Below, one piece after another: positions 5,346-57,365 of a DNA stretch of 64,000 nucleotides. This DNA is from a phage. The stretch lies in the NCBI GenBank assembly GCA_026683435.1, contig GCA_026683435.1_4866.1; one strand, 5' to 3'. How positions within the stretch are numbered: position 1 is the first letter of the stretch; each line of letters starts with the position of its first letter. The notes below the pieces were generated by a model. It made no database searches, was not told the origin of the DNA, and saw only the letters and a list, made by a program, of their open reading frames with translations. The position numbers were made by a program, and so were the translations under genes.

Positions 5346-6503
5346 TTATTTACCGATGATATCACGGACCATTGCTTTGATTGTGGCAACAGTACGTTTC
5401 TTTTTCGGCAGCTTGCGGATTTCTGCGTACAGTTTATCCAGGTTCAGCGTTTTCTGTACCTGCGCAACAATCTGCATTTGCTCTTCGTCGATCTTCACTT
5501 CGACGGTTTGTTCCTGCATTTTGCCCAGTTCCTGAATCACACTGGAAACCGATACCGGATAAGCTGTTGATTTTGGACGTTCGATACCGAGGGTAACAAA
5601 GATTTCGTCGTCAATAAACACATTTTCGATATCAACCAAGTTTTCCAGAATGATTTCATCGTGGTCTTCATCTTCCGACGCATTCGGGTATGGACGTTTG
5701 TAGGTGTAATCCCACACGTCATAACCGAGTTTATCTGCGAGTTGTACGAAACCTTCCCAGGTTACTTCGCCGGGGTTGATAGTCTGACCACGGAAACCGG
5801 GGTTGGCCGTAAAGACTTTCACCCAGTCGATGTTCGCGATGTTACGACACTCTTCCAGCGGCGCGTAACGATCTCCCACTTCGTCATTGTCAGTCTCTTC
5901 AACATGCTCTGCTTCACAACGCTCGAAAGTAACTGAGTGTGGTTTACCGTCACCGAAGATAACGGAGGCAGCACGCCAGTCTTCGATAGTCCACTGGACA
6001 TGAGTCAATTCAATGTAACAATGCCCAACCTTAACACGACCATGTGGAGCACTTACTGGTTTAATCAGCTCACCTGGTTCGAAGAAGAATTCGTCAGAAT
6101 GTGCAATGGCATACCAGACACCATCAACACCTTCAACGAGAATAGACCAGTTATAAGGCGCGTGGCAATTTTGGAAAGCTACGCCCAGCATACTTCCCCA
6201 ACGGTCATCTGGCGAATATTTCAGTGGCGGCAGGTTATCAAACTGAAGAGTTTGAGAAGAAAGGCACAACTTATTACGCAGGTGCGGCAGCGGCAGATAA
6301 GCCTCCACATTGTTATCGACCAGCGCATTGTAAAGATCCGGGTTGATAACACCGGTGCCAGTGACGTGTTGTGCAATCAGAGCTTCTGAATATGCACGAA
6401 TACCTTCGTAGCTAAGCACATACGCACGGTCACGTACTACACGAGCCATATCTTCGATTACGGAAATTGGAAATTTCATGTTAATAGTCCTTATAAAAGT
6501 CAA
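5346..6503 (-). CDS. hypothetical protein (385 aa)
   Basis: Long ORF; no recognisable motif. Confidence 0.55.
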   Translation of the reverse strand: MTFIRTINMKFPISVIEDMARVVRDRAYVLSYEGIRAYSEALIAQHVTGTGVINPDLYNALVDNNVEAYLPLPHLRNKLCLSSQTLQFDNLPPLKYSPDDRWGSMLGVAFQNCHAPYNWSILVEGVDGVWYAIAHSDEFFFEPGELIKPVSAPHGRVKVGHCYIELTHVQWTIEDWRAASVIFGDGKPHSVTFERCEAEHVEETDNDEVGDRYAPLEECRNIANIDWVKVFTANPGFRGQTINPGEVTWEGFVQLADKLGYDVWDYTYKRPYPNASEDEDHDEIILENLVDIENVFIDDEIFVTLGIERPKSTAYPVSVSSVIQELGKMQEQTVEVKIDEEQMQIVAQVQKTLNLDKLYAEIRKLPKKKRTVATIKAMVRDIIGK

Positions 6504-6539
6504 TGGTATTTTCAGATGATTAGTTACTGCTGTAAAAAA

Positions 6540-6806
6540 CTAGTTACGGTCGGAATTAAAGACGTGCCAGGTACTACGCCAGCGGAAGAATCGGGTTATG
6601 AAACCACGTATGTGGTAGCCTGAGAACAACATCCAGATCGTGAGAAAAAGCTGCGCCCATGGAGTGGTGAGTTCCATCAAATGCGCGACTATCGCACCAA
6701 CTATCAACATTACCGTGGAGAATAACAAACTATACATCATCGGAATGTTGTGGCTATAGCGTTTCTCCATCCAGTAGAGAAAATTTATTAAACGTTTCAC
6801 GAACAC
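6540..6806 (-). CDS. small membrane protein (88 aa, two predicted TM helices)
   Basis: Hydrophobic stretches SLLFSTVMLIVGAIVAHL and LFLTIWMLFSGYHI. Confidence 0.45.
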   Translation of the reverse strand: MFVKRLINFLYWMEKRYSHNIPMMYSLLFSTVMLIVGAIVAHLMELTTPWAQLFLTIWMLFSGYHIRGFITRFFRWRSTWHVFNSDRN

Positions 6807-6814
6807 ACATCCAA

Positions 6815-6852
6815 GAATTAAATAAAAGGTGGTCAGACCCGAAGGTCTGACC
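6815..6852 (-). terminator. rho-independent terminator
   Basis: Stem GGTCAGACC / GGTCTGACC with loop CGAA; on minus strand followed by ACCTTTTATTTAATT; sits after stop of 6858..7451. Confidence 0.6.
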
Positions 6853-6857
6853 GTTAA

Positions 6858-7451
6858 TTACGCATCGGCCTCAAAGAACGGCTGGTTTGGTACCACTGCG
6901 TATTCGAGCACGAACAGATGTTCTGGGGCATCTTCTGCTCGCCACAGTTTGTGGCACGTTGCCAGTTTTTCCAGGATGGTCAACCAGCTGAGCTGGCAGA
7001 AAGCACGGTCGCCGAAGAACAGTTTCTGCAGTGCAATCGACACATCCATATACGCCTGTTTGAAGTCGAGTTCTTTATCGTAACCCGCCGACTGTCGCCA
7101 CGTCAGCACGAAACCTGCTTCGGTTTCGTTAATTGCTGGACGTAAACCACAAATCCACATCAGTGCCAGATTAACGTTCCAGTCGAATTCGATACCTTCG
7201 TCTTCGTCATCACCAAACGCCGCGTTTAACGCATCGTAGAAACCGTGGTTCTCTGCGAACCATTCGCCGTACTCAACGTAGACCGGTGCTTCGACAGCTT
7301 CCCCATCGACTTCACCGATAGGACGCTCTACATAGTTCGGGTTGGTTTGAACGTGTTCCGCACCCGCGCGAATTAATTCGTAGACATCTTTGGCGGTGAT
7401 TTGTGCGGCTGTTTTAAGACCTGGATACCAGGGGCGTGTTACGAGTGTCAA
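6858..7451 (-). CDS. hypothetical protein (197 aa)
   Basis: ORF; acidic protein, no motif recognised. Confidence 0.5.
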   Translation of the reverse strand: MTLVTRPWYPGLKTAAQITAKDVYELIRAGAEHVQTNPNYVERPIGEVDGEAVEAPVYVEYGEWFAENHGFYDALNAAFGDDEDEGIEFDWNVNLALMWICGLRPAINETEAGFVLTWRQSAGYDKELDFKQAYMDVSIALQKLFFGDRAFCQLSWLTILEKLATCHKLWRAEDAPEHLFVLEYAVVPNQPFFEADA

Positions 7452-11831: not shown

Positions 11832-14331
11832 ATTTGATTATTACCCCTTCGTTATAAACCGGTGGAAGCGTTACACCTTCTGGCTCCACGACACAGTAGG
11901 TGGCTTCGTTAAGTTTAGAATGAACTTCCGCTTCATGCGAAACGACCAGCAATTGAGAAAACTCTCCCGACAACGCCAACGATTTAATGAAGTTGACCAG
12001 TCGATTTTTGTGTTCTTCATCCATGCCTTCAGAGGGTTCATCCAATAACAAAGGATAGTTTTGTAAACCAAGCGCTTTATACGCTGTTAAACGAAACATC
12101 ATGTTAAAGATAATACGCTGTGCCTTCGAACCTTTCTTCACATCCGGCACCAGTTCTTCATGGTCTTTTAATCGCACCGGGAAAGTATAATCCAAATCCC
12201 CGTCGGTTAGATCGCATGGAATAACCTGCATCGGATATGCCCATACCGTTTCGATATACCGATTCATTAAATCCATGATGCGGGTAATCGCAGCATAAAA
12301 GTAACGACGCAATAATCCCTTTTCGGGTGAGACGGCATTGATAATCAATCTGGCATGATGGTGTTCTTTGAGCAACTCAGCTTGCTCTTTTTCCAATTCC
12401 GCTAAACGTGCAATAGCCCCTTCCATTTGACGAAACCGTTCACGAGCGGAAGTGTACGCATCGAGCTTCGCTTCGCGTCGGTTTAACAACTCGCGAACCA
12501 CGACGTTGTTAACGGAGATGTTCATTTCCGATACCAGATGTTCGTAGCCTTTTTGGAAACGTTCGATTGCTTCTTTGGTTTGTTGCAGTTGGGTGGTTTC
12601 GCGTTCCAGCACATTGGCTTGTCTGCGGTATTCTATCAGTCGACGGTTAGCCCCGTCCAGTTGTGAACGGATATGTTCAATTTTCTGGCTCAGCGCACCA
12701 TCAACGTTACCTACTGCGGCAACAGCCTCTTGCCATTCCCGTTCCGCTGTTGCAAGCTTCTCCGATTGACGCAGATACATCATGGCCGAATCTAGCTCTT
12801 CAGTAAAGGCACGTGCAATGGCACCGTAACGATCCCGCGCCATGGTGAAGATATCCAGCTCCTGCAGTTTACGGAAAAACAAACCGACAACGGGATGGTT
12901 GGAATACGACATGACGATTTCGCGAATCGTACGTAAGCTACGGACGTCCTCTTCAATCTCTTTGCGGTCACGCAAAAGACTATCCATTTCGTCTTTCAGC
13001 TGCTTCTTCCAACCTTCATTATCGTTGATGGCCTTTTCAATTTCAGGTAACGACTTACGAATCCCAGGACGGAAACGGTGGTTACACTGTGGACAATCAA
13101 CTTCTGCAGTTTCTAAGAAGTGTTGACGGTCGTGGTATAAACCGTGTAGCACATTCTCACAACGTTGCAGCTTTTCAGATAGACCCGCAGAGGTTAAATC
13201 CATACCCTGTAAACGCTTCTCTAACGCTCCCAGGCGCTCTGTTGTCTTTAACTGGTCCAGATGCATGGACAACGGTAAATTCCAGTTACAGGCATCGTTT
13301 AACGCGTTCTGAATGCTATCCACATCGATGCGGGTGCCTTCAAACAGAGCCGGGAACATCCAGTTCTGTTGGAACGTTGCCAGTTCCTGTTTTAAGCTGT
13401 CGATTGTTTGTTTTAGACCGGTATGGTTGCGCATCAGATATGCTTGACGCGACTCCTCATCCAGTAGCTGTGACAACTCTTTATTGTACATGTTGCATTC
13501 AGTTTCAGCAGAGGCCGCTTGCTCACGCCAGGCAACCACACGACTTTGAAACTCGTTAATCAGTTCGTCAGAAGGCAGAACGCCATAACGTTCCATAATG
13601 AGTTTTACAGCCGGTTGCAACGAGGCAATGCGTTTCCGGATACTATCAACCGAAACGGCGTTATCTAAACCGGGTCTCGCTTCAATGGTGCGGTTTAGTT
13701 CCTGAAGCTCAACGTCCAGTTCTTTCAAACGAACTTCTAAACGTGCACGATCTTCTTCATCGTCCACCACGCGCATTTTTGCCTCACCGATTTTACGGCC
13801 GGTGTGCTCAATGGCCCCACTTAAACTGGAAGCGAGTTTACGCAGACGACGATAACAACCAACGACGTACGTCAGATCAGATTCTGACATTAACGTAAAC
13901 CATTTACGACGAACTTCAGTGGTAGCGTCTGTTAATAAGGTTTCACCGTTAATTAACTCTTTGATTTCTTTGGTGATCCCGGTTAACTGTTCCACCATGG
14001 AGTTGTAAACTTTGGCGTTTACCGAGTCTACGACGGAGACACCTTTAGTGATGTTGAAGATACTACAAGACAGAGAAGAGCCACGACGCAGGACTTCAAA
14101 CTTAAGACGGTCGTCCCCAACTAACGCGTAGTTAGTGTAGGAACCACCTTCACGGAATTCTGATTTTGCTGGAGCTAAGGGGAGAAAAACAGATAGGAGG
14201 CTTGTTTTACCGCAGCCGTTGCCACCGAGGATGATGGTAACGGTTGACTTAAGGGTGAAATCAAACGTTTCGATTTCATGTAACCCCATGCCGGTAAATC
14301 CTTTCAAAATGATACGTTCGACCTTGAGCAT
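11821..14331 (-). CDS. SbcC/Rad50-like recombination ATPase
   Basis: N-terminal Walker A GGNGCGKTS; long central coiled-coil with CPQC zinc hook near its middle; C-terminal Walker B LLLDEPSEG and H-loop VVSHEA. Confidence 0.75.
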   Translation of the reverse strand: MLKVERIILKGFTGMGLHEIETFDFTLKSTVTIILGGNGCGKTSLLSVFLPLAPAKSEFREGGSYTNYALVGDDRLKFEVLRRGSSLSCSIFNITKGVSVVDSVNAKVYNSMVEQLTGITKEIKELINGETLLTDATTEVRRKWFTLMSESDLTYVVGCYRRLRKLASSLSGAIEHTGRKIGEAKMRVVDDEEDRARLEVRLKELDVELQELNRTIEARPGLDNAVSVDSIRKRIASLQPAVKLIMERYGVLPSDELINEFQSRVVAWREQAASAETECNMYNKELSQLLDEESRQAYLMRNHTGLKQTIDSLKQELATFQQNWMFPALFEGTRIDVDSIQNALNDACNWNLPLSMHLDQLKTTERLGALEKRLQGMDLTSAGLSEKLQRCENVLHGLYHDRQHFLETAEVDCPQCNHRFRPGIRKSLPEIEKAINDNEGWKKQLKDEMDSLLRDRKEIEEDVRSLRTIREIVMSYSNHPVVGLFFRKLQELDIFTMARDRYGAIARAFTEELDSAMMYLRQSEKLATAEREWQEAVAAVGNVDGALSQKIEHIRSQLDGANRRLIEYRRQANVLERETTQLQQTKEAIERFQKGYEHLVSEMNISVNNVVVRELLNRREAKLDAYTSARERFRQMEGAIARLAELEKEQAELLKEHHHARLIINAVSPEKGLLRRYFYAAITRIMDLMNRYIETVWAYPMQVIPCDLTDGDLDYTFPVRLKDHEELVPDVKKGSKAQRIIFNMMFRLTAYKALGLQNYPLLLDEPSEGMDEEHKNRLVNFIKSLALSGEFSQLLVVSHEAEVHSKLNEATYCVVEPEGVTLPPVYNEGVIIKYAS

Positions 14332-47912: not shown

Positions 47913-50090
47913 TTACGATAACGGTATCGTTGGCCGCACCCACGGTTTAGGGGCAGATTTGGTATACGGATTACATTCCATCATTTTACCGAGATACGCA
48001 TCGTAATACACGAAGCGATCGACGTAGAACTTCTCCACCGGTGCACTACTGGTAGCCGATTTCACCCGGTTGCGTTCCACAGCGAGGCTAATCGCCCCGG
48101 TAGGTGCGGGTTTTAGCGTGAACATCACCGCGCGGTTGTAACGCCAAGTGTCGTGCACAATATCAAACTCCGATACACAGTGTGCCATGATACCAAACAA
48201 TGTGGTGGCTGGTAAGTTGGCTACAGCATCGCCGTATGGTGTTCCCACCAAACCGCCGGGTATGTTTTGCTTTTGGAACAGCGTACCTGAAATAATCGTA
48301 CCTAAGAACTCCACAACTACAGGCTTGGTTGGGTCGGTGACTTTATCTATCCCATCCGCACTGGCCAATCGGTTGGCATCTAAATCTGCGAGGTAGTCGA
48401 GGAACTCTTGGTACTCGTTGGTGACATTCGGTTTCACCGTTCCGACGGATACCCAGTTGACGATACTTTTATTCCCACCGACGGCTTCGCCTGCCATCCC
48501 AGGGCGAGTCCATGACATCCCGTCTTCACGACCGTAGACATAGATCGGCGAGCCGGTAGCCGGGGTGTTCCATTGCTCGAACGCTGTATATCGTCCCGGC
48601 TGGCCCCAATCCCCACCCGGACCGCCATAGTAGCGACTCTGGTAGCCGGTAAATTGTGCGACGACTAACTGAGTAGCACCGCCTTTGTCACGGGACCCAG
48701 CTAAGCCGTTACGGTTATTGGTGCCGCTGGGCACCACCGCGCCTGTCCCGAGTGGCGCACCACCAGCTCCACCGATCTTGGTGGTGCTAAACGCATAGTA
48801 GTCGCCCCCACCCCCACCTCCGGCGATGGTGCCGTAGTTTTCGATGGTGACTTTGCCACGGAAGGCATCGGTAATGTGGATTGCGTCAGCTCCGTCTGCT
48901 GATGTGTTCGCAGGCAGAGAATAGACCATACCCGAACCACCACGACCAAGAATGGTTCCCCGGTTAACGAAGTTCCAAACCACCTCGCCAATTTGCGGCA
49001 ATTCGTCGATAACGAACGTCGGTTTCAGGTTGCTGTCGCGATAAACGAAAGCCCCCGCATCTACGGTCACGTTAACAAACAAACGCCCGCACGCCGCATG
49101 GTTGGTCAACGTCGTGGCCCAGTAGCTGTCCGAAACTTGCGACGTAGTTGTGTAGTTCAGGTTAAGGGTTTGCTCGTTATCTTGATAGCGTGCCACATTC
49201 AACGTGGCACTGCCCATGACTTTGTACGAACCCTCCACGGGTGCCAATTGCACTTGTCTTGGCCACTCGCCTGTCAAGTTCTCTACAGGAGCAATTTCGT
49301 TTACATCAAAAACACTCCGAATGCCGAGTGTCTCGATGGCCAGAGCATCGTGCAGGCTACCGGTGAAATCATCCGGGACGTATGTGGTTTTGCCTGCATA
49401 TGTCTCGAGTTTGTTACGTGAAAAGAACACATACTTCGTTCCAAACATCCCGCTCCCCGGTCTAGCGGTCAAAGCTACGACGCTGTTATACGCAGAGGTT
49501 TGGCCTATATCCTCCGGGGACATAGGGGAGCTGACATCGACTTTATCAAGATCCACGATCCGTTTGGTTGCATTAGAGTAGAAGTTAATCCACTGCTGTT
49601 TATTCGCAGCCTTTAGCGTGAGAATGATGTTGGTAACAGTGTAGACGGTGTTGATATCCACGTCACCGTTTATCACATCTAGCGTTTGGCTGCCGTACCA
49701 GATAAGACTTGTCTGTTTCGTCTGGAACGTGATGCGCGCAGCATTGTTTGTCCAAGTGATAGGCAGGTCTTCAAAGTCGTCAGTTAAAAAGGTAATCCCT
49801 AGTAGAGTGTCTAAATGCGGCAACAGTTCGTGGATGGACGCACAAGTGGGAATGGCATCCAACTTAACCTTGGCGAAATAATCAGCAATATTTTGCTTCG
49901 TGACTTGGGCCGTAATTTGACCGTAATTTGAATACCCCGGACCCCCTGTCAGTGTGACGTCTAGGGTTTTTTCGTCACGATGCGCCACGGACACCAGGCG
50001 TACGTTAGCGGGGTCTACTGCTTTGGCGACCGCGTTTTTACGGTTGAGCGACCGAATCACGGTCGCCACTAAATCAGGAGTGTAGGACAT
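47913..50090 (-). CDS. N-module family protein (725 aa) with Gly-rich central tract; putative receptor-binding/adhesin protein
   Basis: Shared N-module; central GGGGGGDYYAFSTTKIGGAGGAPLGTG...YYGGPGGDWGQPG; C-terminal PYTKSAPKPW shared with 50105..51424. Confidence 0.55.
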   Translation of the reverse strand: MSYTPDLVATVIRSLNRKNAVAKAVDPANVRLVSVAHRDEKTLDVTLTGGPGYSNYGQITAQVTKQNIADYFAKVKLDAIPTCASIHELLPHLDTLLGITFLTDDFEDLPITWTNNAARITFQTKQTSLIWYGSQTLDVINGDVDINTVYTVTNIILTLKAANKQQWINFYSNATKRIVDLDKVDVSSPMSPEDIGQTSAYNSVVALTARPGSGMFGTKYVFFSRNKLETYAGKTTYVPDDFTGSLHDALAIETLGIRSVFDVNEIAPVENLTGEWPRQVQLAPVEGSYKVMGSATLNVARYQDNEQTLNLNYTTTSQVSDSYWATTLTNHAACGRLFVNVTVDAGAFVYRDSNLKPTFVIDELPQIGEVVWNFVNRGTILGRGGSGMVYSLPANTSADGADAIHITDAFRGKVTIENYGTIAGGGGGGDYYAFSTTKIGGAGGAPLGTGAVVPSGTNNRNGLAGSRDKGGATQLVVAQFTGYQSRYYGGPGGDWGQPGRYTAFEQWNTPATGSPIYVYGREDGMSWTRPGMAGEAVGGNKSIVNWVSVGTVKPNVTNEYQEFLDYLADLDANRLASADGIDKVTDPTKPVVVEFLGTIISGTLFQKQNIPGGLVGTPYGDAVANLPATTLFGIMAHCVSEFDIVHDTWRYNRAVMFTLKPAPTGAISLAVERNRVKSATSSAPVEKFYVDRFVYYDAYLGKMMECNPYTKSAPKPWVRPTIPLS

Positions 50091-50104
50091 GGTGACACCT
50101 TAGT

Positions 50105-51424
50105 CTATAGCGGTGGATACCAAGGGACCGGGGCGGTTTTGCTATATGGACTGTAGACCATATAGCCGCCTTTGCTTGGGTCGTAATAGATGAAATAGTT
50201 ACAGTAATTCGAGTAGAGGCTCGTCATTTGTTTGGATTGGTATCCGTTACGGTATAGTCCCTGGTAAGTAGTAGCTGATGTCGTGGTGGTGTAAGCAGTG
50301 TGGTACAGTACCCGACGCCGGTTAGCAATACTTTCTTGGAACATCTCTTCGGTCGGAAACGCGTGTTGCATCAGCCGTCGAATACTCCCGGTACAGTATC
50401 GAGTGCCATACGGGGAACCCGTTAAATCATCCGCCGTTTCAGGCGATTCTGCCCGAGTCAACACGTACTCGTTTTGATACAACGTGACGCTCATCGAATT
50501 TGGGCTGGTTTCCCGGAAACTCATGTAACGCGCATAACGTTCGACGTCCTCTTCCTGCGCCAAATAGGCCACGTTATTTTTCGGACCAAAGTGCAAGAAG
50601 AACGGACGACGGAGATTACCCATATCCTCAGGTGGCGTCAACTTCACGCAGTAATTGTACTCCCCACGCATATCAGGGTCTAAGCCTGGGTTGTTATTGC
50701 GTGTAGCGACATACCCATAGAGGTCATACGGGTTATCAGTAGCAGCATTACCGATAGTGAACGGGATGCCCGACCATGCCGACAGCGCCGCGATGAACTG
50801 GGTCATGTACGAGTTACTGTTTAGTCGCAGCGGGGTACCCATTGGAATATTGATTATCTGTTGGGTGTACATGCTCCAGTCGAGTCGATAGACCGTGCTG
50901 TAAACATCCATGGGTTCCCAAGCCCCGGTTTCGGTGGTGTGGTACAAGTCGGCAAAGCTGGGCTCTTCACGAATAAAGCTAATAGGAATGTGACCCGTGA
51001 ATGCGGGGTTATCCGATTTAATCGCCACCGTCCGATCGCCCGTTGCCACAGTGATCATTGCAAACTGGCTGTCGGGATACGTTAAATCGTCAGCAGTAAG
51101 CACCAACCCACAAGCTGCGGAAATCCGGTCGATGATGTCGCGGTAGGACGTCGCCCGATAAGGTACTTTAACCGGTACGCTGACGCCTTTAAAATACTGC
51201 GAAAGGTTTAAGCGGTCGTAGTAGATGTCCATCTTACCGCTGTAACCACCACCCTGTAATCCGTTTACCACTATACGGCTGTTGCGGCCATCGCGCAAGG
51301 CATTGGTTAAAGGACCTTGTAATAACGCCACGTTTGTTGCGTTGAGTGGTTTCTTGAGCTGCGGGTTATCACGATTAATCTGATCCCAAACCAGCTGCAT
51401 GACAGGTTTGTTATAGTTGATCAT
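50105..51424 (-). CDS. N-module family protein (439 aa)
   Basis: N-terminus MINYNKPVMQLVWDQINRDNPQL...GRNSRIVVNGLQGGGYSGKMDIYYDRLNLSQYF; C-terminal PYSKTAPVPW. Confidence 0.55.
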   Translation of the reverse strand: MINYNKPVMQLVWDQINRDNPQLKKPLNATNVALLQGPLTNALRDGRNSRIVVNGLQGGGYSGKMDIYYDRLNLSQYFKGVSVPVKVPYRATSYRDIIDRISAACGLVLTADDLTYPDSQFAMITVATGDRTVAIKSDNPAFTGHIPISFIREEPSFADLYHTTETGAWEPMDVYSTVYRLDWSMYTQQIINIPMGTPLRLNSNSYMTQFIAALSAWSGIPFTIGNAATDNPYDLYGYVATRNNNPGLDPDMRGEYNYCVKLTPPEDMGNLRRPFFLHFGPKNNVAYLAQEEDVERYARYMSFRETSPNSMSVTLYQNEYVLTRAESPETADDLTGSPYGTRYCTGSIRRLMQHAFPTEEMFQESIANRRRVLYHTAYTTTTSATTYQGLYRNGYQSKQMTSLYSNYCNYFIYYDPSKGGYMVYSPYSKTAPVPWYPPL

Positions 51425-51432
51425 TGCAACGT

Positions 51433-51470
51433 CCTAAAAAAAGAAAATAGGCCCTTCGGGGCCTATTTTT
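51433..51470. terminator. rho-independent terminator (bidirectional)
   Basis: AATAGGCCC / GGGCCTATT stem with loop TTCG, flanked by an A-tract and a T-tract. Confidence 0.6.
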
Positions 51471-51498
51471 AGCTGTTATGGTGAAGTACGCTATCCCT

Positions 51499-51591
51499 TT
51501 AACTCCAGCTGATTCGACCTGCGTGTTGGGGATTATCCCGCTGAATGAGCCGACACAACAGCTCAAGTGCAGTGGATGAGTAAAACCCCAT
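51499..51591 (-). pseudogene. 30-codon relic of an N-module gene
   Basis: MGFYSSTALELLCRLIQRDNPQHAGRISWS followed by a stop, own SD GGAGC; matches residues 1-30 of 53991..55409 (MGLYTEPSMELLCQQIVRDNPGLAGKITADS). Confidence 0.5.
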
Positions 51592-51602
51592 ATTAGCTCC
51601 TG

Positions 51603-51743
51603 TTAGCTAAGAACCAATTCGATAACGTGGACTACCGACGCGCTACTGTTCGAAGAGATGTACGATGGTGAGTCTGGATAAGTGGCGCGATAATACCACG
51701 TGTTGGCGTTGCCAGCGATTTGATAGGCGCGTCTACCGACTGT
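51603..51743 (-). pseudogene. C-terminal relic of an FN3-like/GPGP-family gene (X family)
   Basis: Encodes ...NTWYYRATYPDSPSYISSNSSASVVHVIELVLS, aligning with the C-termini of 52090..52989 (WYSRPPYPESPSNGRY...SIAVLELVLP) and 55423..56346; an in-frame stop lies about 46 codons upstream. Confidence 0.45.
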
Positions 51744-51844
51744 ACACTGCTATCAGATAACCAAACACCGTATAAATCACGTAGAGCTGGGAGAAGATCC
51801 CGCACGGTCTTGGCCGTTTGTGGTACGTAGACGCGCGGAGCTAT

Positions 51845-52078
51845 TTAAAATAGATCTGATAATGTTAAACGGTCGTAATAAACCGTGCACTCCCCAGAGA
51901 AACCTTTACCGGGTTTACCTACCAACGTAATTACCGTGTTACGACCATTCTTAGTGGTCTCGGCAGGAATACCCCTCACCCCAATCGAATCAGCGCTGAT
52001 TCTTCCTGCGAGTTCAGGGTTATCCCTTACAACCTGTTGGCAGAGCAGTTCCAGTTCGGGTGCGCTATACAATCCCAT
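51845..52078 (-). pseudogene. truncated N-module gene (77 codons, N-terminal module only)
   Basis: MGLYSAPELELLCQQVVRDNPELAGRISADSIGVRG...ECTVYYDRLTLSDLF then stop; near-colinear with the first 77 aa of the 472-aa gene 53991..55409; SD retained. Confidence 0.55.
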
Positions 52079-52089
52079 GAAGTCTCCTG

Positions 52090-52989
52090 TTAAGGCAGAA
52101 CGAGTTCAAGTACCGCAATAGAACGTATTGTATCGGTTTCGTATCTACCGTTCGACGGCGACTCTGGGTAAGGTGGACGGCTGTACCACTGATTGTAAAT
52201 GTCAGACATAGTCGCAAAGAGTGCAGATTGCGGGGCAGTAGTCGAATCGGTTGGACCGACCGGAAGGTCGTCAAAGCGCGGCAACTGCCCACTGTAGTTG
52301 TACAGGCGCGCGAAAGTGTTAAACCACTCACCGTCGAGATACAGCTCGGTCTTACCGCTTCTAACGTTAGTCGTCCAGAATCTGTAGTCGAACAAATACG
52401 GCAAACGCACCACGTATTCGTAACCGTTCTTCGCCACCGTGCGGCGTTGGTTACGTGCAGTGGCCCAGCTCGGTACAAATCCATTGCCATCCTGGCCGTA
52501 CATCAGCCCCTGGTTATAAATGAACTGCGGGCTAGCGTATATTATCGCGTTATCGGACATAAACAGAATACGGTTTTTGTAAATGAACTTATGCCAGGCA
52601 CCAACGGCGGAACTGAACATATTCACCACGAGGCTGTTCAGTTCCGTGTTAGTGAATAACTCTGTTGGCGTTACTGTTCCAAAGTATCCAGCGTGCCAGT
52701 CGCCGTATAACAGCTTCTGGGGGCCAGGCCCGGTGTCTAAAAAGAACCCTTGGGCGGTAGGGGTGTTGAAGACACGCTCACCGTCTTTAACCGCAGCTAT
52801 CCAATAACGGTAAGTGGTGTTGTTTTCCACAGCGTTGTCTTCGTACGATGTAGCGTCACCCGGAAGGGTTGCCAGAGGCGTTCCCGGTGCATTAACATCA
52901 ATGGTGGCGTTGCCCGGCGTCTTGCGATAGATTTCGATGCTATCGAGCGCCTGTGGCTTCCGTTGTGCAAAGTTTAATGTAATAGGCAT
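52090..52989 (-). CDS. X-family protein: FN3-like N-terminal segment plus GPGP domain (~300 aa)
   Basis: ORF track 52090..53025; ATG at 52987-52989 gives MPITLNF..., colinear with paralogue 55423..56346; motifs IEIYRK, TTYRYW.AAVKD.ER, DTGPGPQ, GYFGTV, C-terminal ELVLP. Confidence 0.55.
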   Translation of the reverse strand: MPITLNFAQRKPQALDSIEIYRKTPGNATIDVNAPGTPLATLPGDATSYEDNAVENNTTYRYWIAAVKDGERVFNTPTAQGFFLDTGPGPQKLLYGDWHAGYFGTVTPTELFTNTELNSLVVNMFSSAVGAWHKFIYKNRILFMSDNAIIYASPQFIYNQGLMYGQDGNGFVPSWATARNQRRTVAKNGYEYVVRLPYLFDYRFWTTNVRSGKTELYLDGEWFNTFARLYNYSGQLPRFDDLPVGPTDSTTAPQSALFATMSDIYNQWYSRPPYPESPSNGRYETDTIRSIAVLELVLP

Positions 52990-52991
52990 GA

Positions 52992-53978
52992 TTAATCCTC
53001 GATAAGCTCGATTACTGGAATCCAAACACCGCCCGCGGTCGCACCAGCGACATGTTGTATACGCTGGAGGTTATCCACGGTATCAGTGGAACCCGCCGCC
53101 GTTCCGCGCGTCAGCCCCAACTTACGGTCTGGGTCAAACTCCTGACAATGCGCCCCGCGGCCACTCACCGCCGATCCACTTCCGAATATGCTGGTGTTCG
53201 ACCACTTTATCAGGGACATCACTTTTTTCTTTTCTGGGAACCAGCTACTTATCCCATAGATGAGTCGGTTGTATTCGCTATCGGCAGTATACGGTGACGC
53301 GTCATGGAGTTTACCGTCCCACTGTGCATCGAGTGTCATGACCGGGCTTTCACTGTCGAGTGTTAAACCGCGCAGCAGGCGCATCCGATAGCGGTCACCC
53401 AACCACGTAAACTCCCCAGCCTGGTCAACGTCAGGTAAATCACCATGACCGCCTTCCGGACCAGGTCCCGCCACACCGTACAGCAAACCCGCGTTATAAA
53501 TCGCATCACGGCTATACAGCGTGTTGCCGTTCACACGAAGACCACTAAACAGATACAGAATTTTACCGTCTAGCTGGAACTTCATCAAGCCCGGCTTAAC
53601 AGTTGGGTCGTATCCAGAAAGGGCCACAAACCCTGGCGGATAATCAGCCGCGCTAGGCAATTCACCGTACGCCACATACCCGTAATACGCAAAGCGGTCA
53701 TCACCGTACTGTGGAGCCACGATGCCGATACCGCGACGGTTCTGAATTAGAATTGATTTCTGCGGACTGAACAGTGTCCGACTTCCCACTGTCACGGTGG
53801 TCATGTAGTAATACGTTGTCCCCAGTATCGCTGTTCGGTCAGTATACTCAGTTTCCCCGTTAGTGAACGTTGCCAGGGGTTCAGGTAATGCCGTACGCAC
53901 CAGAGGTTTGGTGTCGCGGTACAGCTTCACGGTCGAAGCCCCAGGGTTATTGTTCGTCCAACGAATTGTAAAAGCCAT
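52992..53978 (-). CDS. Y-family protein: FN3-like N-terminal segment plus GPGP domain (328 aa)
   Basis: Paralogue of 56356..57354 (MAFTIRWTNNNPG...KLYRD vs MSFTLRWKNPNVIP...KIYRD); GPGPEGGHGDLP; C-terminal IELIED. Confidence 0.55.
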   Translation of the reverse strand: MAFTIRWTNNNPGASTVKLYRDTKPLVRTALPEPLATFTNGETEYTDRTAILGTTYYYMTTVTVGSRTLFSPQKSILIQNRRGIGIVAPQYGDDRFAYYGYVAYGELPSAADYPPGFVALSGYDPTVKPGLMKFQLDGKILYLFSGLRVNGNTLYSRDAIYNAGLLYGVAGPGPEGGHGDLPDVDQAGEFTWLGDRYRMRLLRGLTLDSESPVMTLDAQWDGKLHDASPYTADSEYNRLIYGISSWFPEKKKVMSLIKWSNTSIFGSGSAVSGRGAHCQEFDPDRKLGLTRGTAAGSTDTVDNLQRIQHVAGATAGGVWIPVIELIED

Positions 53979-53990
53979 TGTCGTTACCTC

Positions 53991-55409
53991 TTATTGGAAT
54001 CCATCCAACTCACCGTTAGTATCGCCCAGAGTAATTTTTGAAGGTTGGGCGATTTGGTCAGTCGTGAGAATAATCGGTCTAATCTTAACGCTAGCCATGC
54101 CTGTTACCGCGACGGAATATGCACGTTCATCATTGTCCGTCGTGGCAAGCAGAGGACGTGGATTCGCTGCAGCGGAGGTTTCCGTAATAGGCACCACACG
54201 AAGCGATTCGTTTTGGTCGATGTCTGTCAGAGTAACCACGGACGGTGCCCATGTCAGTTCTGCACCTTCGTCAATCAACGGCACAGGTTCATTGGCAACA
54301 TCAAACATCTCCAGGATTGGCCAAAAGCCAGAAGAGGTGTGGATGTATGTGTATGAACGATAGCTCCCACTGATAGACTGGTAATACGCTTGGTCGGCAC
54401 CGAACTGGTGTCGTAACCACACGTAATCCAGGAAGTTAGCATCAGTCGTGCTAAGAGTTCCCCATTCCCCATATACGTTCACCGACCCCAATTTGCTGGT
54501 CAGTGACAGGATAGAGGTGATTGACGGCGGTTTACTCCAATCAGGCGCGGCGGCGTTCTCGGTGTAATACGGGATAGACATTCTGAAATAATGCGTTCCT
54601 TCATCATCCCGTTTTACCATGTATTTCAACTGTTCAACATCGACAGGTGTGTAAGTCGACTTCGGGCGAGGTCCTGCGTCTCCGGAATCAAATATTGCAC
54701 CCTTGTTGTACAGGTCTGCCCAGGTAACGTTGCAAATCGCACGGGTCGGAACAAACACTACCGCCCCATTCAGAAAGAATTTGAGCCACTTGATAGCGTA
54801 GCGGTTAGGCCAGTTGGTGCCGTTATAGAGGGCATACACCATTTCATCAGATGTGAATAACTCTTCCGCGCTTACCAACCCAAAGAATCCGTATAACTCA
54901 TTACCGGCCATTAATCCTTTTGGCCCAGGACCCGATTTCGGATACATCGCAATCGGTTCGTAAACATAGGTCATCTTGCATGACCCGGTATAACACAAGG
55001 AGTTAGCGTGCGCCGTCAGAGTTACAGTTTCCGGCGTAGCGTATTTCATTAATGCAACGTTTGGACTGGTGATGTCACTCGCGGTTAAGTTCAACCCGTT
55101 CAATTCATTGAACGCCGGTAACGCTTCCGCATGGGTTTGTGCGCTACGTGGAATACTCACCATATTCGGGCCAGACTTGAACAGACTGGCCAGATTCAAC
55201 CGGTCGTAATATACCGTTATTTCCCCAGCAAATCCTTTACCGGGTTTTCCTACCAACGTAATCTGTGTGTTTCGTCCGTTAACGTTTTTCGCAACAGGAA
55301 CACCCCTGACCCCAATGGAGTCAGCGGTGATTTTTCCTGCTAAACCGGGATTGTCACGCACAATTTGTTGGCAGAGCAGTTCCATTGAAGGTTCTGTATA
55401 CAACCCCAT
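53991..55409 (-). CDS. N-module plus GPGP-domain protein (472 aa)
   Basis: Shared N-module; SGPGPKGLMAGNELYGFFGLVSAEELF; C-terminus ...GDTNGELDGFQ; paralogue of 57366..58778. Confidence 0.55.
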   Translation of the reverse strand: MGLYTEPSMELLCQQIVRDNPGLAGKITADSIGVRGVPVAKNVNGRNTQITLVGKPGKGFAGEITVYYDRLNLASLFKSGPNMVSIPRSAQTHAEALPAFNELNGLNLTASDITSPNVALMKYATPETVTLTAHANSLCYTGSCKMTYVYEPIAMYPKSGPGPKGLMAGNELYGFFGLVSAEELFTSDEMVYALYNGTNWPNRYAIKWLKFFLNGAVVFVPTRAICNVTWADLYNKGAIFDSGDAGPRPKSTYTPVDVEQLKYMVKRDDEGTHYFRMSIPYYTENAAAPDWSKPPSITSILSLTSKLGSVNVYGEWGTLSTTDANFLDYVWLRHQFGADQAYYQSISGSYRSYTYIHTSSGFWPILEMFDVANEPVPLIDEGAELTWAPSVVTLTDIDQNESLRVVPITETSAAANPRPLLATTDNDERAYSVAVTGMASVKIRPIILTTDQIAQPSKITLGDTNGELDGFQ

Positions 55410-55422
55410 GGTATTTACTCCA

Positions 55423-56346
55423 TTACGGTAAGACTAATTCAAAAGCAAAGAACATCGTGGCCGAGTTCCCGACACCTGAGGTGTTACTAATCCCCATAGG
55501 CGCATAACCGTACGCATAAGCGAAAATGTTGTTGCTCCATAAAGGAGCTAATGCAGCAGCACCTGTTTCGTTAGGCTGGTAAGTTGAACCTTGCGCCGGT
55601 ATTGAATCGATGGCACCAAGACCAATAGGCGGGAACTGTGAACCGACAGGATACAAACGGCCCATTGTGTTTCGCCATTCACCGTTGTTGTAATCCTGTC
55701 CTGAGAGTGCCGCGTCGTACGGGACTGCGTAAGGTAACCGGATACGGTACGTACGACCATCCTTCGTGACCTTACAATCTTGTTTGGTCGCCGTGGCCCC
55801 CAGCGGAACAATACTTCCGTCATCATCGGTCCCGTACATCATGCCGTACTGATACGCCATTTGTACCGAGTTGCTTTTCGAATGCATCGTCGCTGGGAAG
55901 AAGACAATTCGCCCACGGAAAATAAACTTGTGCCATTCCTGAGGGTCGTAAGTAAACATGTTTCCCTGCTGCGCGGTTAACATGAGTTTTAACTCGGCAG
56001 TATTAAAGAACTCGGTATTAGATACCGTACCGAAATAGCCTGACGCCCAATCGCCACGCAAAATAGTTTGTGGCCCCGGTCCAGTGTCCGGATAGAACCC
56101 TTGCGTAATCGGATTGCCGATAAGTCGTTCATTATCTTTCACAGCAGCTACCCAGTAACGATAAGTTGTATTCTTCGTCAGGGTATCGATATTATCTACG
56201 AACTCTACCGCGCTACCGGATAAGGTGGCGTGGGGTGTACCTGGGTTGTAAACGTCGATTGTTGCGTTCCATCCTTCCTTGCGGTAGATTTCAATCGCGG
56301 TAAGACCTTTGCTGGCTTGGGACGGCCAGCTTAACCGTATAGTCAT
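55423..56346 (-). CDS. X-family protein (307 aa)
   Basis: Paralogue of 52090..52989; IEIYRK, DTGPGPQ, C-terminal FELVLP. Confidence 0.55.
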   Translation of the reverse strand: MTIRLSWPSQASKGLTAIEIYRKEGWNATIDVYNPGTPHATLSGSAVEFVDNIDTLTKNTTYRYWVAAVKDNERLIGNPITQGFYPDTGPGPQTILRGDWASGYFGTVSNTEFFNTAELKLMLTAQQGNMFTYDPQEWHKFIFRGRIVFFPATMHSKSNSVQMAYQYGMMYGTDDDGSIVPLGATATKQDCKVTKDGRTYRIRLPYAVPYDAALSGQDYNNGEWRNTMGRLYPVGSQFPPIGLGAIDSIPAQGSTYQPNETGAAALAPLWSNNIFAYAYGYAPMGISNTSGVGNSATMFFAFELVLP

Positions 56347-56355
56347 GACTGCCCC

Positions 56356-57354
56356 TTACTCGACCAGTTCAAAGATAGGGTAGTAGCGCCCTTTCGTGGT
56401 GGGTGATAAATAGTTTATACGCTGAATCGTGGATACGGGTGTTCCACCGGCATTGTTAAAAATACCACGATGGAGCACACGGTCTTCCGCGGTATCGTGT
56501 TCCATACAGAGAACACCACCGCCGAAATACTGTGCCAAGGTTCCCAAAGTACCCTGTCCCAGATAAGTATAACCGATTGTTGCCCAGTTAGCCCAACGCT
56601 GTTTCTTCGGCACCTCGTTAACCATCGTGTAAAGTAAATCGTTATACTCACACGGGTTGGTTAGAGAAGCGATTTCATCATGGGTTTTCCCATTATAGTC
56701 AGCTACGAAAGGATACGCAGGAGGCTCGCTAGACGTCGTCAGGCCGCGAGGAAGACGCATAATGTACGTATCCCCTTTGTGGACTATCTTAGCGTCTTGT
56801 GGAGTGGCCGGTAGCGTTCCATGGCCGTTCTCTGGGCCAGCATCGCCCGTACCATAGACTAAACCAGCTTGATAGAGGGAAGCCCAGTCCACAGGCGTAT
56901 TCGGGAACTGCGACGTGTTAGATAGCATGTAATAGATCTTCCCGTTTCGGGTAAATTTATACAACGCCACACGATCGGTTAGTAGGTTAGGGAACATCGC
57001 CAAAAATGCAGGTGGCATTTGCGACGGAAGCCACTGTTCGTCGTAAGGAACCGCACCCATAAACCCTAAACGGTCGTCACCGTTTAGAATAGTCATTGGG
57101 CCTATCCCGCGTTTTACCTCAACAGTATATTTCTGGCTAGACGATGCCACTGTTTTACCGTTGGCGGTTACCGTCAGAAGGTAATAATAGGTTGCGCCTG
57201 GTGTGGCGGTGGTATCACGCCATTCTGTCTCGCCATTTGAGAGCGTTGCAATCGGTTCAGGCAAAGCGCCTGGTGTGATATCTTTAACATCACGGTAGAT
57301 TTTTACTACCGTAGGGATTACGTTTGGATTTTTCCAACGCAAAGTAAAAGACAT
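56356..57354 (-). CDS. Y-family protein (332 aa)
   Basis: Paralogue of 52992..53978; GDAGPENGHGTLP; C-terminal FELVE. Confidence 0.55.
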   Translation of the reverse strand: MSFTLRWKNPNVIPTVVKIYRDVKDITPGALPEPIATLSNGETEWRDTTATPGATYYYLLTVTANGKTVASSSQKYTVEVKRGIGPMTILNGDDRLGFMGAVPYDEQWLPSQMPPAFLAMFPNLLTDRVALYKFTRNGKIYYMLSNTSQFPNTPVDWASLYQAGLVYGTGDAGPENGHGTLPATPQDAKIVHKGDTYIMRLPRGLTTSSEPPAYPFVADYNGKTHDEIASLTNPCEYNDLLYTMVNEVPKKQRWANWATIGYTYLGQGTLGTLAQYFGGGVLCMEHDTAEDRVLHRGIFNNAGGTPVSTIQRINYLSPTTKGRYYPIFELVE

Positions 57355-57365
57355 GGATGATACCT

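Follow-up and report, generated by a model that had tools for sequence, protein, structure and literature searches.

Probable debris of two gene losses in a tandem array of DUF7941-family virion genes of a Seoulvirus phage

In phage loci that encode tail fibers and receptor-binding proteins, such as those of T4-type and multi-tailspike phages, short direct repeats give rise to deletions, and modules are exchanged at conserved N-terminal anchors. In phage SPN3US, "paralog family B" (gp138 to gp154) is a 17- to 20-member paralogue family of virion proteins (PMC5105663, PMC5694885), the members of which were identified by virion mass spectrometry (PMC5694885). Its gp151, gp152, and gp153 are annotated in the GenBank record as putative virion structural proteins 17 to 19. 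Proteins with the domain DUF7941, including those of phage Goslar, have been proposed to attach to the peripheral baseplate and to form head-to-tail fibers for host recognition, with the N-domain of one protomer binding the linker/C-domain of the next (bioRxiv 10.64898/2026.04.21.720040). This conflicts with the placement of the family in the head by the SPN3US laboratory (Thomas), which found it in a tailless mutant (PMC5694885). The array studied here probably consists of virion genes that serve in host recognition.

The array and its intact cassettes

The window, the whole 64,000-nucleotide stretch of DNA that was analyzed (contig GCA_026683435.1_4866.1), belongs to a Seoulvirus, an SPN3US-type jumbo phage of Salmonella/E. 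coli. Positions 50000 to 53100 match 34 phage records at 95 to 99% identity, almost all of them Seoulvirus. The minus strand carries all genes around a 665-nt gap (52089-51425). Read 5' to 3' on this strand, several full-length DUF7941 genes (276 to 303 aa) come first, followed by two three-gene cassettes upstream of the gap (470/332/307 aa and 472/328/299 aa). Downstream of the gap lie a 439-aa DUF7941 gene, a 725-aa gene that combines a DUF7941 N-domain with a T-even Gp38-type adhesin domain, and lysis-related genes. In SPN3US numbering, the region reads gp143/144, gp145-147, gp148-150, gp154, gp155, and gp156-158, with gp151-153 belonging at the place of the gap. The paralogous N-modules are about 75% identical to each other, which makes the region repetitive.

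The A, Y, and X genes of each cassette have a common core domain of about 215 aa, with 13 positions invariant among six paralogues. This core is preceded by a DUF7941 N-domain in the A gene and probably by an FN3-like domain in the Y and X genes. For the latter, the first ~80 residues of an X-protein model built from a 6-sequence paralogue alignment (pLDDT 62) match FN3 weakly (Foldseek E ~2e-3). The X-gene family (gp147/gp150/gp153) can be described accordingly as an FN3-like N-domain plus the ~215-aa core, ending in ...ELVLP/S.

The N-module of the A genes is better defined. Intact paralogues match Pfam DUF7941 over positions 1 to 150 with E values of 1e-22 to 1e-87, above the gathering threshold, and an AlphaFold model of the first 165 residues of the 472-aa protein (pLDDT 82.7, pTM 0.72) shows a single alpha/beta domain spanning residues ~8 to 150. 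Searched by sequence against the PDB, the 472-aa protein had no match. In the fold search, which alone led to this entry, the only significant PDB match of the model was a 150-residue chain of the phiKZ outer peripheral baseplate (9XQD; E 7.7e-6, TM 0.61/0.66, 155 columns).

Other kinds of gap content were considered and rejected. Scanned on both strands against Rfam, positions 51200-52300 returned one sub-threshold chance match only, and an RNA gene in the gap was dismissed for want of a match above threshold. On the plus strand, the ORFs of the gap (33, 31, 36, and 78 aa) are shadows, read in antisense, of the minus-strand remnants described below. A scan for sigma-70 promoters found sites no more frequent than in shuffled controls.

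Remnants of gp151 and gp153 and their carriers

An earlier note on this DNA, made from the letters alone, had described the gap as holding three coding fragments left by the deletion and decay of a further cassette copy. The fragments are real: homologies to gp151, to gp153, and to the N-module were all recovered on the minus strand, and chance accounts for none of them. As a whole, the gap very probably represents non-functional debris of two gene-loss events in a tandem array of DUF7941-family virion genes.

The larger remnant, at 52078-51603 on the minus strand, corresponds to the third cassette of SPN3US minus 2,882 nt, and on alignment to its relatives it is the two ends of that deleted cassette. 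Window positions 51698-52300 align at 93% to the end of gp150 and the first 127 codons of SPN3US gp151, and positions 51300-51714 match, at 96%, the stretch that runs from the last 37 gp153 codons through the 178-nt spacer into the start of gp154. The segment lost relative to SPN3US comprises the C-terminal three quarters of gp151, the whole of gp152, and gp153 except for its last 35 codons. The claim that a further cassette copy was deleted is thus borne out by the relatives, as SPN3US and phage 1252, both of which were inspected, keep intact gp151-gp152-gp153 genes between their gp150 and gp154 homologues. In all, about 26 Seoulvirus records match the stub inside a long annotated gene, a count read from hit tables alone except for these two phages. 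The comparison with related phages that the note had called for accordingly found intact genes at the locus in SPN3US and 1252 and no conserved small gene.

The spacer after the stop codon of the cassette-2 X gene (52079-52089, minus strand; CAGGAGACTTCATG) is identical to the region 5' of intact SPN3US gp151 and contains the Shine-Dalgarno sequence AGGAG (52088-52084). It is followed by a 77-codon ORF (51848-52078) that equals codons 1 to 77 of SPN3US gp151, the first half of the DUF7941 N-terminal domain. Its product, MGLYSAPELELLCQQVVR..., is identical to SPN3US gp151 residues 1 to 77 and 74% identical to the N terminus of the window's 472-aa protein, with 75% nucleotide identity over 213 nt. 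The ORF ends at a premature TAA (51845-51847), where intact gp151 alleles have AAA (K78*): the first base is T in the window and in JN03 and A in SPN3US and 1252. An N-module ORF of 77 codons cut by a stop had been reported, and this stands; the gp151 homology also continues in frame past the stop, now untranslated, from codon 79 to about codon 126 (51844-51701), differing from SPN3US gp151 by I83V and one synonymous change. Over its 127 codons, the gp151 part is 98% identical to SPN3US gp151 at the nucleotide level.

The deletion junction lies at 51699-51711 in a microhomology, AACGCCAACACGT, and was placed by a three-way alignment, by the comparison with SPLA5c, and by alignment offsets. Both parental sequences read AACGCCA.C.CGT at 51711-51699, matching at 11 of 13 positions, and the window tracks gp151 up to ...AACACGT and gp153 from CGTGG... 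onward. Because 2,882 nt is no whole number of codons, the gp151 and gp153 stubs are in different frames. The stub comprises the last 35 codons and the stop of a gp153-type X gene (51603-51710, stop 51605-51603; NANTWYYRATYPDSPSYISSNSSASVVHVIELVLS). The C-terminal X-gene relic (YPDSPSY...VIELVLS) had been recognized correctly, but at 35 codons (51710-51606) it is shorter than the roughly 46 first assigned to it, and with neither the FN3-like domain nor a full core it does not represent a member of the X-gene family. Below the junction, the stub shows no differences over 97 nt from the 3' end of the intact gp153 of SPLA5c. Compared with SPN3US gp153, 13 of these 97 nt differ, and the count is 16 of 110 when the full compared segment, junction included, is taken.

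The term "decayed" overstates what happened to this remnant. Besides the deletion, its sole disabling change is the nonsense substitution K78*, and the scar is identical to that of JN03, with 0 differences across 545 nt (51572-52116). The features are those of a deletion remnant: an intact syntenic orthologue exists, the lesions are disabling, and the truncated ORF is not conserved among carriers.

The presence of this junction in other genomes also bears on whether the gap could be an assembly artifact, a collapse or chimera between repeated cassettes. The region is repetitive, with N-modules about 75% identical, and such errors might be expected there; paralogues this divergent are nonetheless unsuited to collapse, and the junction lies away from any repeat boundary. 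The identical junction occurs in the GenBank phage JN03, in a JGI metagenome contig, and in at least 23 long contigs from ENA, NCBI, and Logan samples, so that the probability of an artifact is close to nil. The contig from the JGI metagenome scan was the only one there with the junction, and a search of IMG/VR with the junction 32-mer gave no match.

The exact 77-aa product is encoded on these at least 23 long contigs (61 index blocks), nearly all of them JN03-like, and K78* is the commonest form among carriers of the scar (35 contigs). The product's 90% cluster also includes a 148-aa protein (P0006) that consists of gp151 residues 1 to 126, with K78 intact, and the out-of-frame tail GIIAPLIQTHHRTSLRTVARR. 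This is the ORF expected directly after the deletion, so the deletion preceded the nonsense mutation. A 114-aa form (P0008/L018, metagenome contig SKDY01006708.1) has the same junction and likewise retains AAA at codon 78, as does P0006; here, a 1-nt deletion leads to ...SVQW and a stop. Further carriers have truncations at 57, 63, and 76 aa, along with several missense singletons; the truncations seen as singletons stem from Logan read sets that were assembled automatically, and assembly or sequencing errors may be among them. A fusion ORF cut at different places in different lineages is the signature of a pseudogene, and the variable ORF lengths indicate neutral decay rather than a conserved small gene.

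Polarity is read from sequence. The reverse direction, with the short arrangement as the ancestor and an insertion that brought the interior of cassette 3 into SPN3US, has no specific support and appears extremely improbable. In the scar, the exact 5' end of one intact gene and the exact 3' end of another meet out of frame at a microhomology, and an insertion would have to recreate both reading frames along with an entire middle gene. In addition, the 148-codon fusion form that predates the nonsense mutation exists, and the same type of stub-to-stub junction arose independently in contig L016 (see below).

The 77-aa ORF matches PHROG 3589 (E 3e-37) and PHROG 1037 (E 6.5e-14), and the identical product has PF25613 on record. 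Its translation signals, the Shine-Dalgarno sequence and the start codon, are preserved, as the earlier note had observed, and the ORF starts 11 nt past the preceding stop; it is probably translated, given these signals and this position. The further suggestion that it could be expressed as a free N-module did not hold up. Ending at residue 77 drops one helix and three strands of the modeled ~150-residue domain, so the product would be about half of a single domain, and other carriers have ORFs of 148, 114, 76, 63, and 57 codons. If translated, the peptide would most likely be an unstable half-domain without function.

It is very unlikely, but conceivable, that the 77-aa ORF (perhaps also the 30-aa ORF described below) is a maintained small gene, the partial N-module of which caps or competes in DUF7941 fiber assembly. 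Such a role would fit the intact Shine-Dalgarno sequence and ATG, a position that permits translational coupling, the occurrence of the exact sequence on many contigs, and the proposal that N-domains bind the linker/C-domain of the next protomer (bioRxiv 10.64898/2026.04.21.720040). It would also fit the five differences from SPN3US within the 77 codons, all of which are synonymous. However, intact gp151 of phage 1252 differs from the stub at three of these five sites and shares the window's variant at the other two, and the four sites that vary within the 77 codons among scar carriers are all among the five and carry SPN3US-type bases. The variation therefore looks like imported allelic variation rather than new mutation. 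Synonymous-only differences were rejected as evidence of selection, since the varying sites carry bases of intact gp151 and a sample obtained by exact-protein look-up is biased. Truncation at residue 77 of a ~150-residue domain, together with the variable ORF lengths and several missense variants among carriers of the same scar, makes a maintained function unlikely; moreover, the ORF is absent from SPLA3, EC001, and SPLA5c, and SPN3US has the full gene.

As a separate observation, the synonymous-only pattern within the 77 codons, alongside the K78* allele being the commonest, is of a kind that constraint could in principle produce.

A second relic and the history of the array

The third fragment has a different origin from the one first proposed. 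Downstream of the gp153 stub, an 11-nt spacer with a Shine-Dalgarno sequence (CAGGAGCTAAT; 51592-51602, minus strand), identical in SPN3US, 1252, SPLA5c, and JN03, precedes a 30-codon ORF (51591-51502; 51499-51591 with its stop). The ORF has its own AGGAG and resembles the N-module of the window's 472-aa protein (50% identity), as the earlier note had stated. However, SPN3US and 1252 both carry an identical, unannotated ORF between gp153 and gp154, beside an intact cassette 3, so the ORF lies outside that cassette. Its signals for translation are intact as well, and at 30 residues it too falls short of the complete ~150-residue DUF7941 domain.

Judged from its homologies, the segment 51591-51459 is an independent, older relic of a full-length gp144-like DUF7941 gene, of which the ORF retains an N-terminal stub of 28 codons. 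In SPLA5c, the same relic persists as a 91-codon in-frame version, annotated as a "virion structural protein," whose C-terminal 60 residues align to the C terminus of the window's 276-aa gp144 homologue (52% identity, E 4e-17). The SPN3US and window versions lack 140 nt between the imperfect repeats GAATCAGC and GAAGCAGC. This loss shifts the frame, so that the ORF ends in ...AGRIS|WS and a stop and the C-terminal remnant, AGVKGIAYFTITAKNRP (51459-51509, minus strand), is out of frame and runs into a hairpin. With only 10 codons left in EC001, the relic forms a graded series of 91 codons in SPLA5c, 30 in SPN3US and the window, and 10 in EC001.

The hairpin and its T-run (51435-51469, minus strand) lie upstream of the gp154 homologue and have the makeup of an intrinsic (rho-independent) terminator, with an 11-bp stem (AAAATAGGCCC/GGGCCTATTTT) and a 4-nt loop found by terminator scan and folding. 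At 51469-51444, the stem is kept and the loop alone varies in SPN3US, SPLA3, SPLA5c, 1252, and EC001. The fold z-score of the whole 76-nt stretch is only -1.85, and the element is regarded as a putative terminator.

In JN03, the stub's first ~22 codons open an intact 504-aa gene, the head of a different third cassette that stands in place of gp154/gp155. Left of about position 51527 the window resembles JN03, and right of it SPN3US; the change from one to the other falls within the 30-codon stub.

Taken together, the comparisons give the following, very probable history. An ancestor with three cassettes (gp145-147, gp148-150, and gp151-153) lost 2,882 nt through short-homology (illegitimate) recombination between AACGCCA.C.CGT in gp151 (codons ~122 to 127) and its copy in gp153, 35 codons before the end. 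The product was a 148-codon out-of-frame fusion ORF, which in the lineage of the window and JN03 later gained K78*, leaving 77 codons. The second event is older and common to SPN3US: successive deletions between short direct repeats reduced a gp144-like DUF7941 gene just upstream of gp154 to a 28-codon N-terminal stub and a 17-codon out-of-frame C-terminal stub. The present arrangement unites a JN03-like left part, with the cassettes and the gp151/gp153 scar, and an SPN3US-like right part, with the older relic, gp154, and gp155. Since the switch point falls within the first ~22 codons of the stub, the conserved 5' ends of these genes serve as crossover sites. We infer that the phage's own recombination machinery made the deletions.

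The array contracted repeatedly. Relative to SPN3US, we found four independent contractions, of which two ran through homology between repeated modules. In SPLA3, 32 nt of homology between the 5' ends of N-modules link gp151 codon 28 to the stub, and in SPLA5c, gp149 is joined to gp152 by homologous recombination between Y paralogues. In EC001/Lh1B, gp151 codon 7 is joined to sequence downstream of the stub, and in the window and JN03, gp151 codon 127 is joined to gp153 codon 265 at the microhomology. Recombination between repeated modules, as envisaged in the earlier note, thus operates in the array, whereas the window's own deletion went through the 11/13-nt microhomology. Contig L016, without the JN03-type cassette, has codon 113 of the 504-aa gene joined in frame to the last 11 X-gene codons at a 13/14-nt match, and the window's 472-aa gene lacks 26 codons of gp148 between two PRPL repeats. 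Short-repeat deletions and crossovers in conserved module ends are thus routine at this locus.

A selective reading of the stubs can also be formulated, in which they are homology "landing pads" where co-infecting Seoulviruses could re-insert or swap whole receptor-binding cassettes, and a translated half N-module might also interfere with DUF7941 fiber assembly. We consider this very unlikely. If either part were true, the retention of the stubs would be selected and not neutral. The landing-pad idea has its basis in what the stubs retain, namely the conserved sequences that begin (MG.YS..ELLC...RDNP) and end (..ELVL.) cassette genes. The window itself looks like a recombinant of JN03-type and SPN3US-type phages.

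Comparison with known systems

Under the reading of the gap as debris of two gene losses, the remnants are an ordinary kind of feature, gene loss in a recombining paralogue array, though one that appears new to the literature: searches there turned up no account of the remnants or of variation in cassette number in the array. No new principle is added, and the value of the analysis lies in annotation and in a record of how a receptor-related array evolves. The 77-aa ORF, deposited as a hypothetical protein in Salmonella assemblies (NCBI, UniRef), and the 91-aa "virion structural protein" of SPLA5c are better treated as gene remnants. The cassette gp151-153 is dispensable although its products are virion components in SPN3US, having been lost at least four separate times by homologous and short-homology recombination. 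The junctions also provide a natural breakpoint map for host-range study or engineering in Seoulvirus or other chimallivirus phages. Where related isolates differ in this region, with insertions and deletions that include a "virion structural protein" region, they also differ in sensitivity to O-antigen glucosylation (PMC10949491), which suggests that cassette content may affect host range.

Among described systems, the closest is the SPN3US cassette gp151-153 itself. The gap holds the 5' end of gp151 and the 3' end of gp153 in the same place between the gp150 and gp154 homologues, but unlike in SPN3US, the genes are destroyed by the loss of 2,882 nt, an out-of-frame fusion, and a premature stop. 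The intact paralogues share their N-domain with the DUF7941 (PF25613) proteins of chimalliviruses, such as Goslar gp22/gp23 and phiKZ gp126/gp127 (PDB 9XQD). In contrast to those proteins, the N-domain in this array is fused to a different core of about 215 aa, and the 77-aa and 30-aa ORFs of the gap are truncated pieces of the domain. As in tail-fiber loci, the array has junctions at imperfect direct repeats of 8 to 14 nt, crossovers in conserved 5' ends, and a cassette number that varies by isolate. Nothing fundamental sets it apart from them; what is unusual is that several stages of decay are found side by side in a 240-kb genome and its relatives.

Deletion and recombination in the cassette arrays

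Contig L016 (NCBI GCA_010876105.1, contig AAOVXM010000003.1) carries the same gp151-gp153 deletion scar as the window and has, in addition, lost the JN03-type third cassette, the three-gene unit headed by an intact 504-aa gene. In the fusion region (positions 6488-6922), the last 11 codons of its X gene are joined in frame to codon 113 of the 504-aa gene through the short match GTTGACTGCA(G/A)ACG. The fusion forms an ORF of 124 aa, directly followed by the endolysin.

A further short-repeat deletion, also in frame, is present in the 472-aa gene of the window (53991-55409, minus strand). Compared to this gene, SPN3US gp148 (498 aa) contains 26 additional codons, and the indel (54154-54161) is assigned to this deletion type because it is flanked by a direct repeat, PRPL...PRPL. 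The short form of the gene is also found in SPLA5c.

The SPLA5c array (L006) contains a 91-aa ORF (WNT48651.1; 11457-11732), annotated as "virion structural protein," which is a gp144-like full-length DUF7941 gene with an internal deletion. It represents an earlier decay stage of the 30-codon relic in the window, the N-terminal stub of an older, lost DUF7941 gene. In the second cassette of SPLA5c, the Y gene (12650-13724) is a gp149/gp152 hybrid annotated as two ORFs of 196 and 132 aa, which therefore indicates a frameshift or duplication at the recombination joint.

Domain content of the cassettes and adjacent genes

The three genes of each of the two cassettes in the window (52090-58778) have a core domain of approximately 215 aa in common, with the pattern GPGP..YFG..ELF..KF..YG..P..Q..RLP..GEW..ELV. 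The fold predicted for this domain is of low confidence and has no match in the PDB. The Y and X genes probably start with an FN3-like domain.

The anchoring module of the cassettes is also that of the gp155 homologue (725 aa; 47913-50090, minus strand), whose N-domain matches DUF7941 (E = 3e-22). Besides this N-domain, the protein carries a tail-fibre adhesin domain of the T-even Gp38 type (PF05268; E = 5.9e-18), a combination that makes it a strong candidate for receptor binding. A 30-aa ORF (46936-47028, minus strand) with a hydrophobic stretch, MQYDNDDWPKGLMPILLGLMVLTMLVRYMT, is flanked by the DUF1353 gene and the gene for the GH108-type endolysin. The annotations of SPLA3, SPLA5c, and phage 1252 list this ORF as a gene, and its product may be a small membrane protein that belongs to the lysis module.

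Virion location of the DUF7941 proteins

Published sources conflict on the site of the paralogue family B/DUF7941 proteins (window ~50105-64000). Family B was assigned to the head upon its detection in a tailless SPN3US mutant (PMC5694885, PMC5105663), whereas the Goslar preprint (10.64898/2026.04.21.720040) and the phiKZ structure 9XQD present DUF7941 proteins as fibres on the peripheral baseplate. The modeled fold of the N-module matches the phiKZ chain located in the baseplate (9XQD), which supports the homology of the two.
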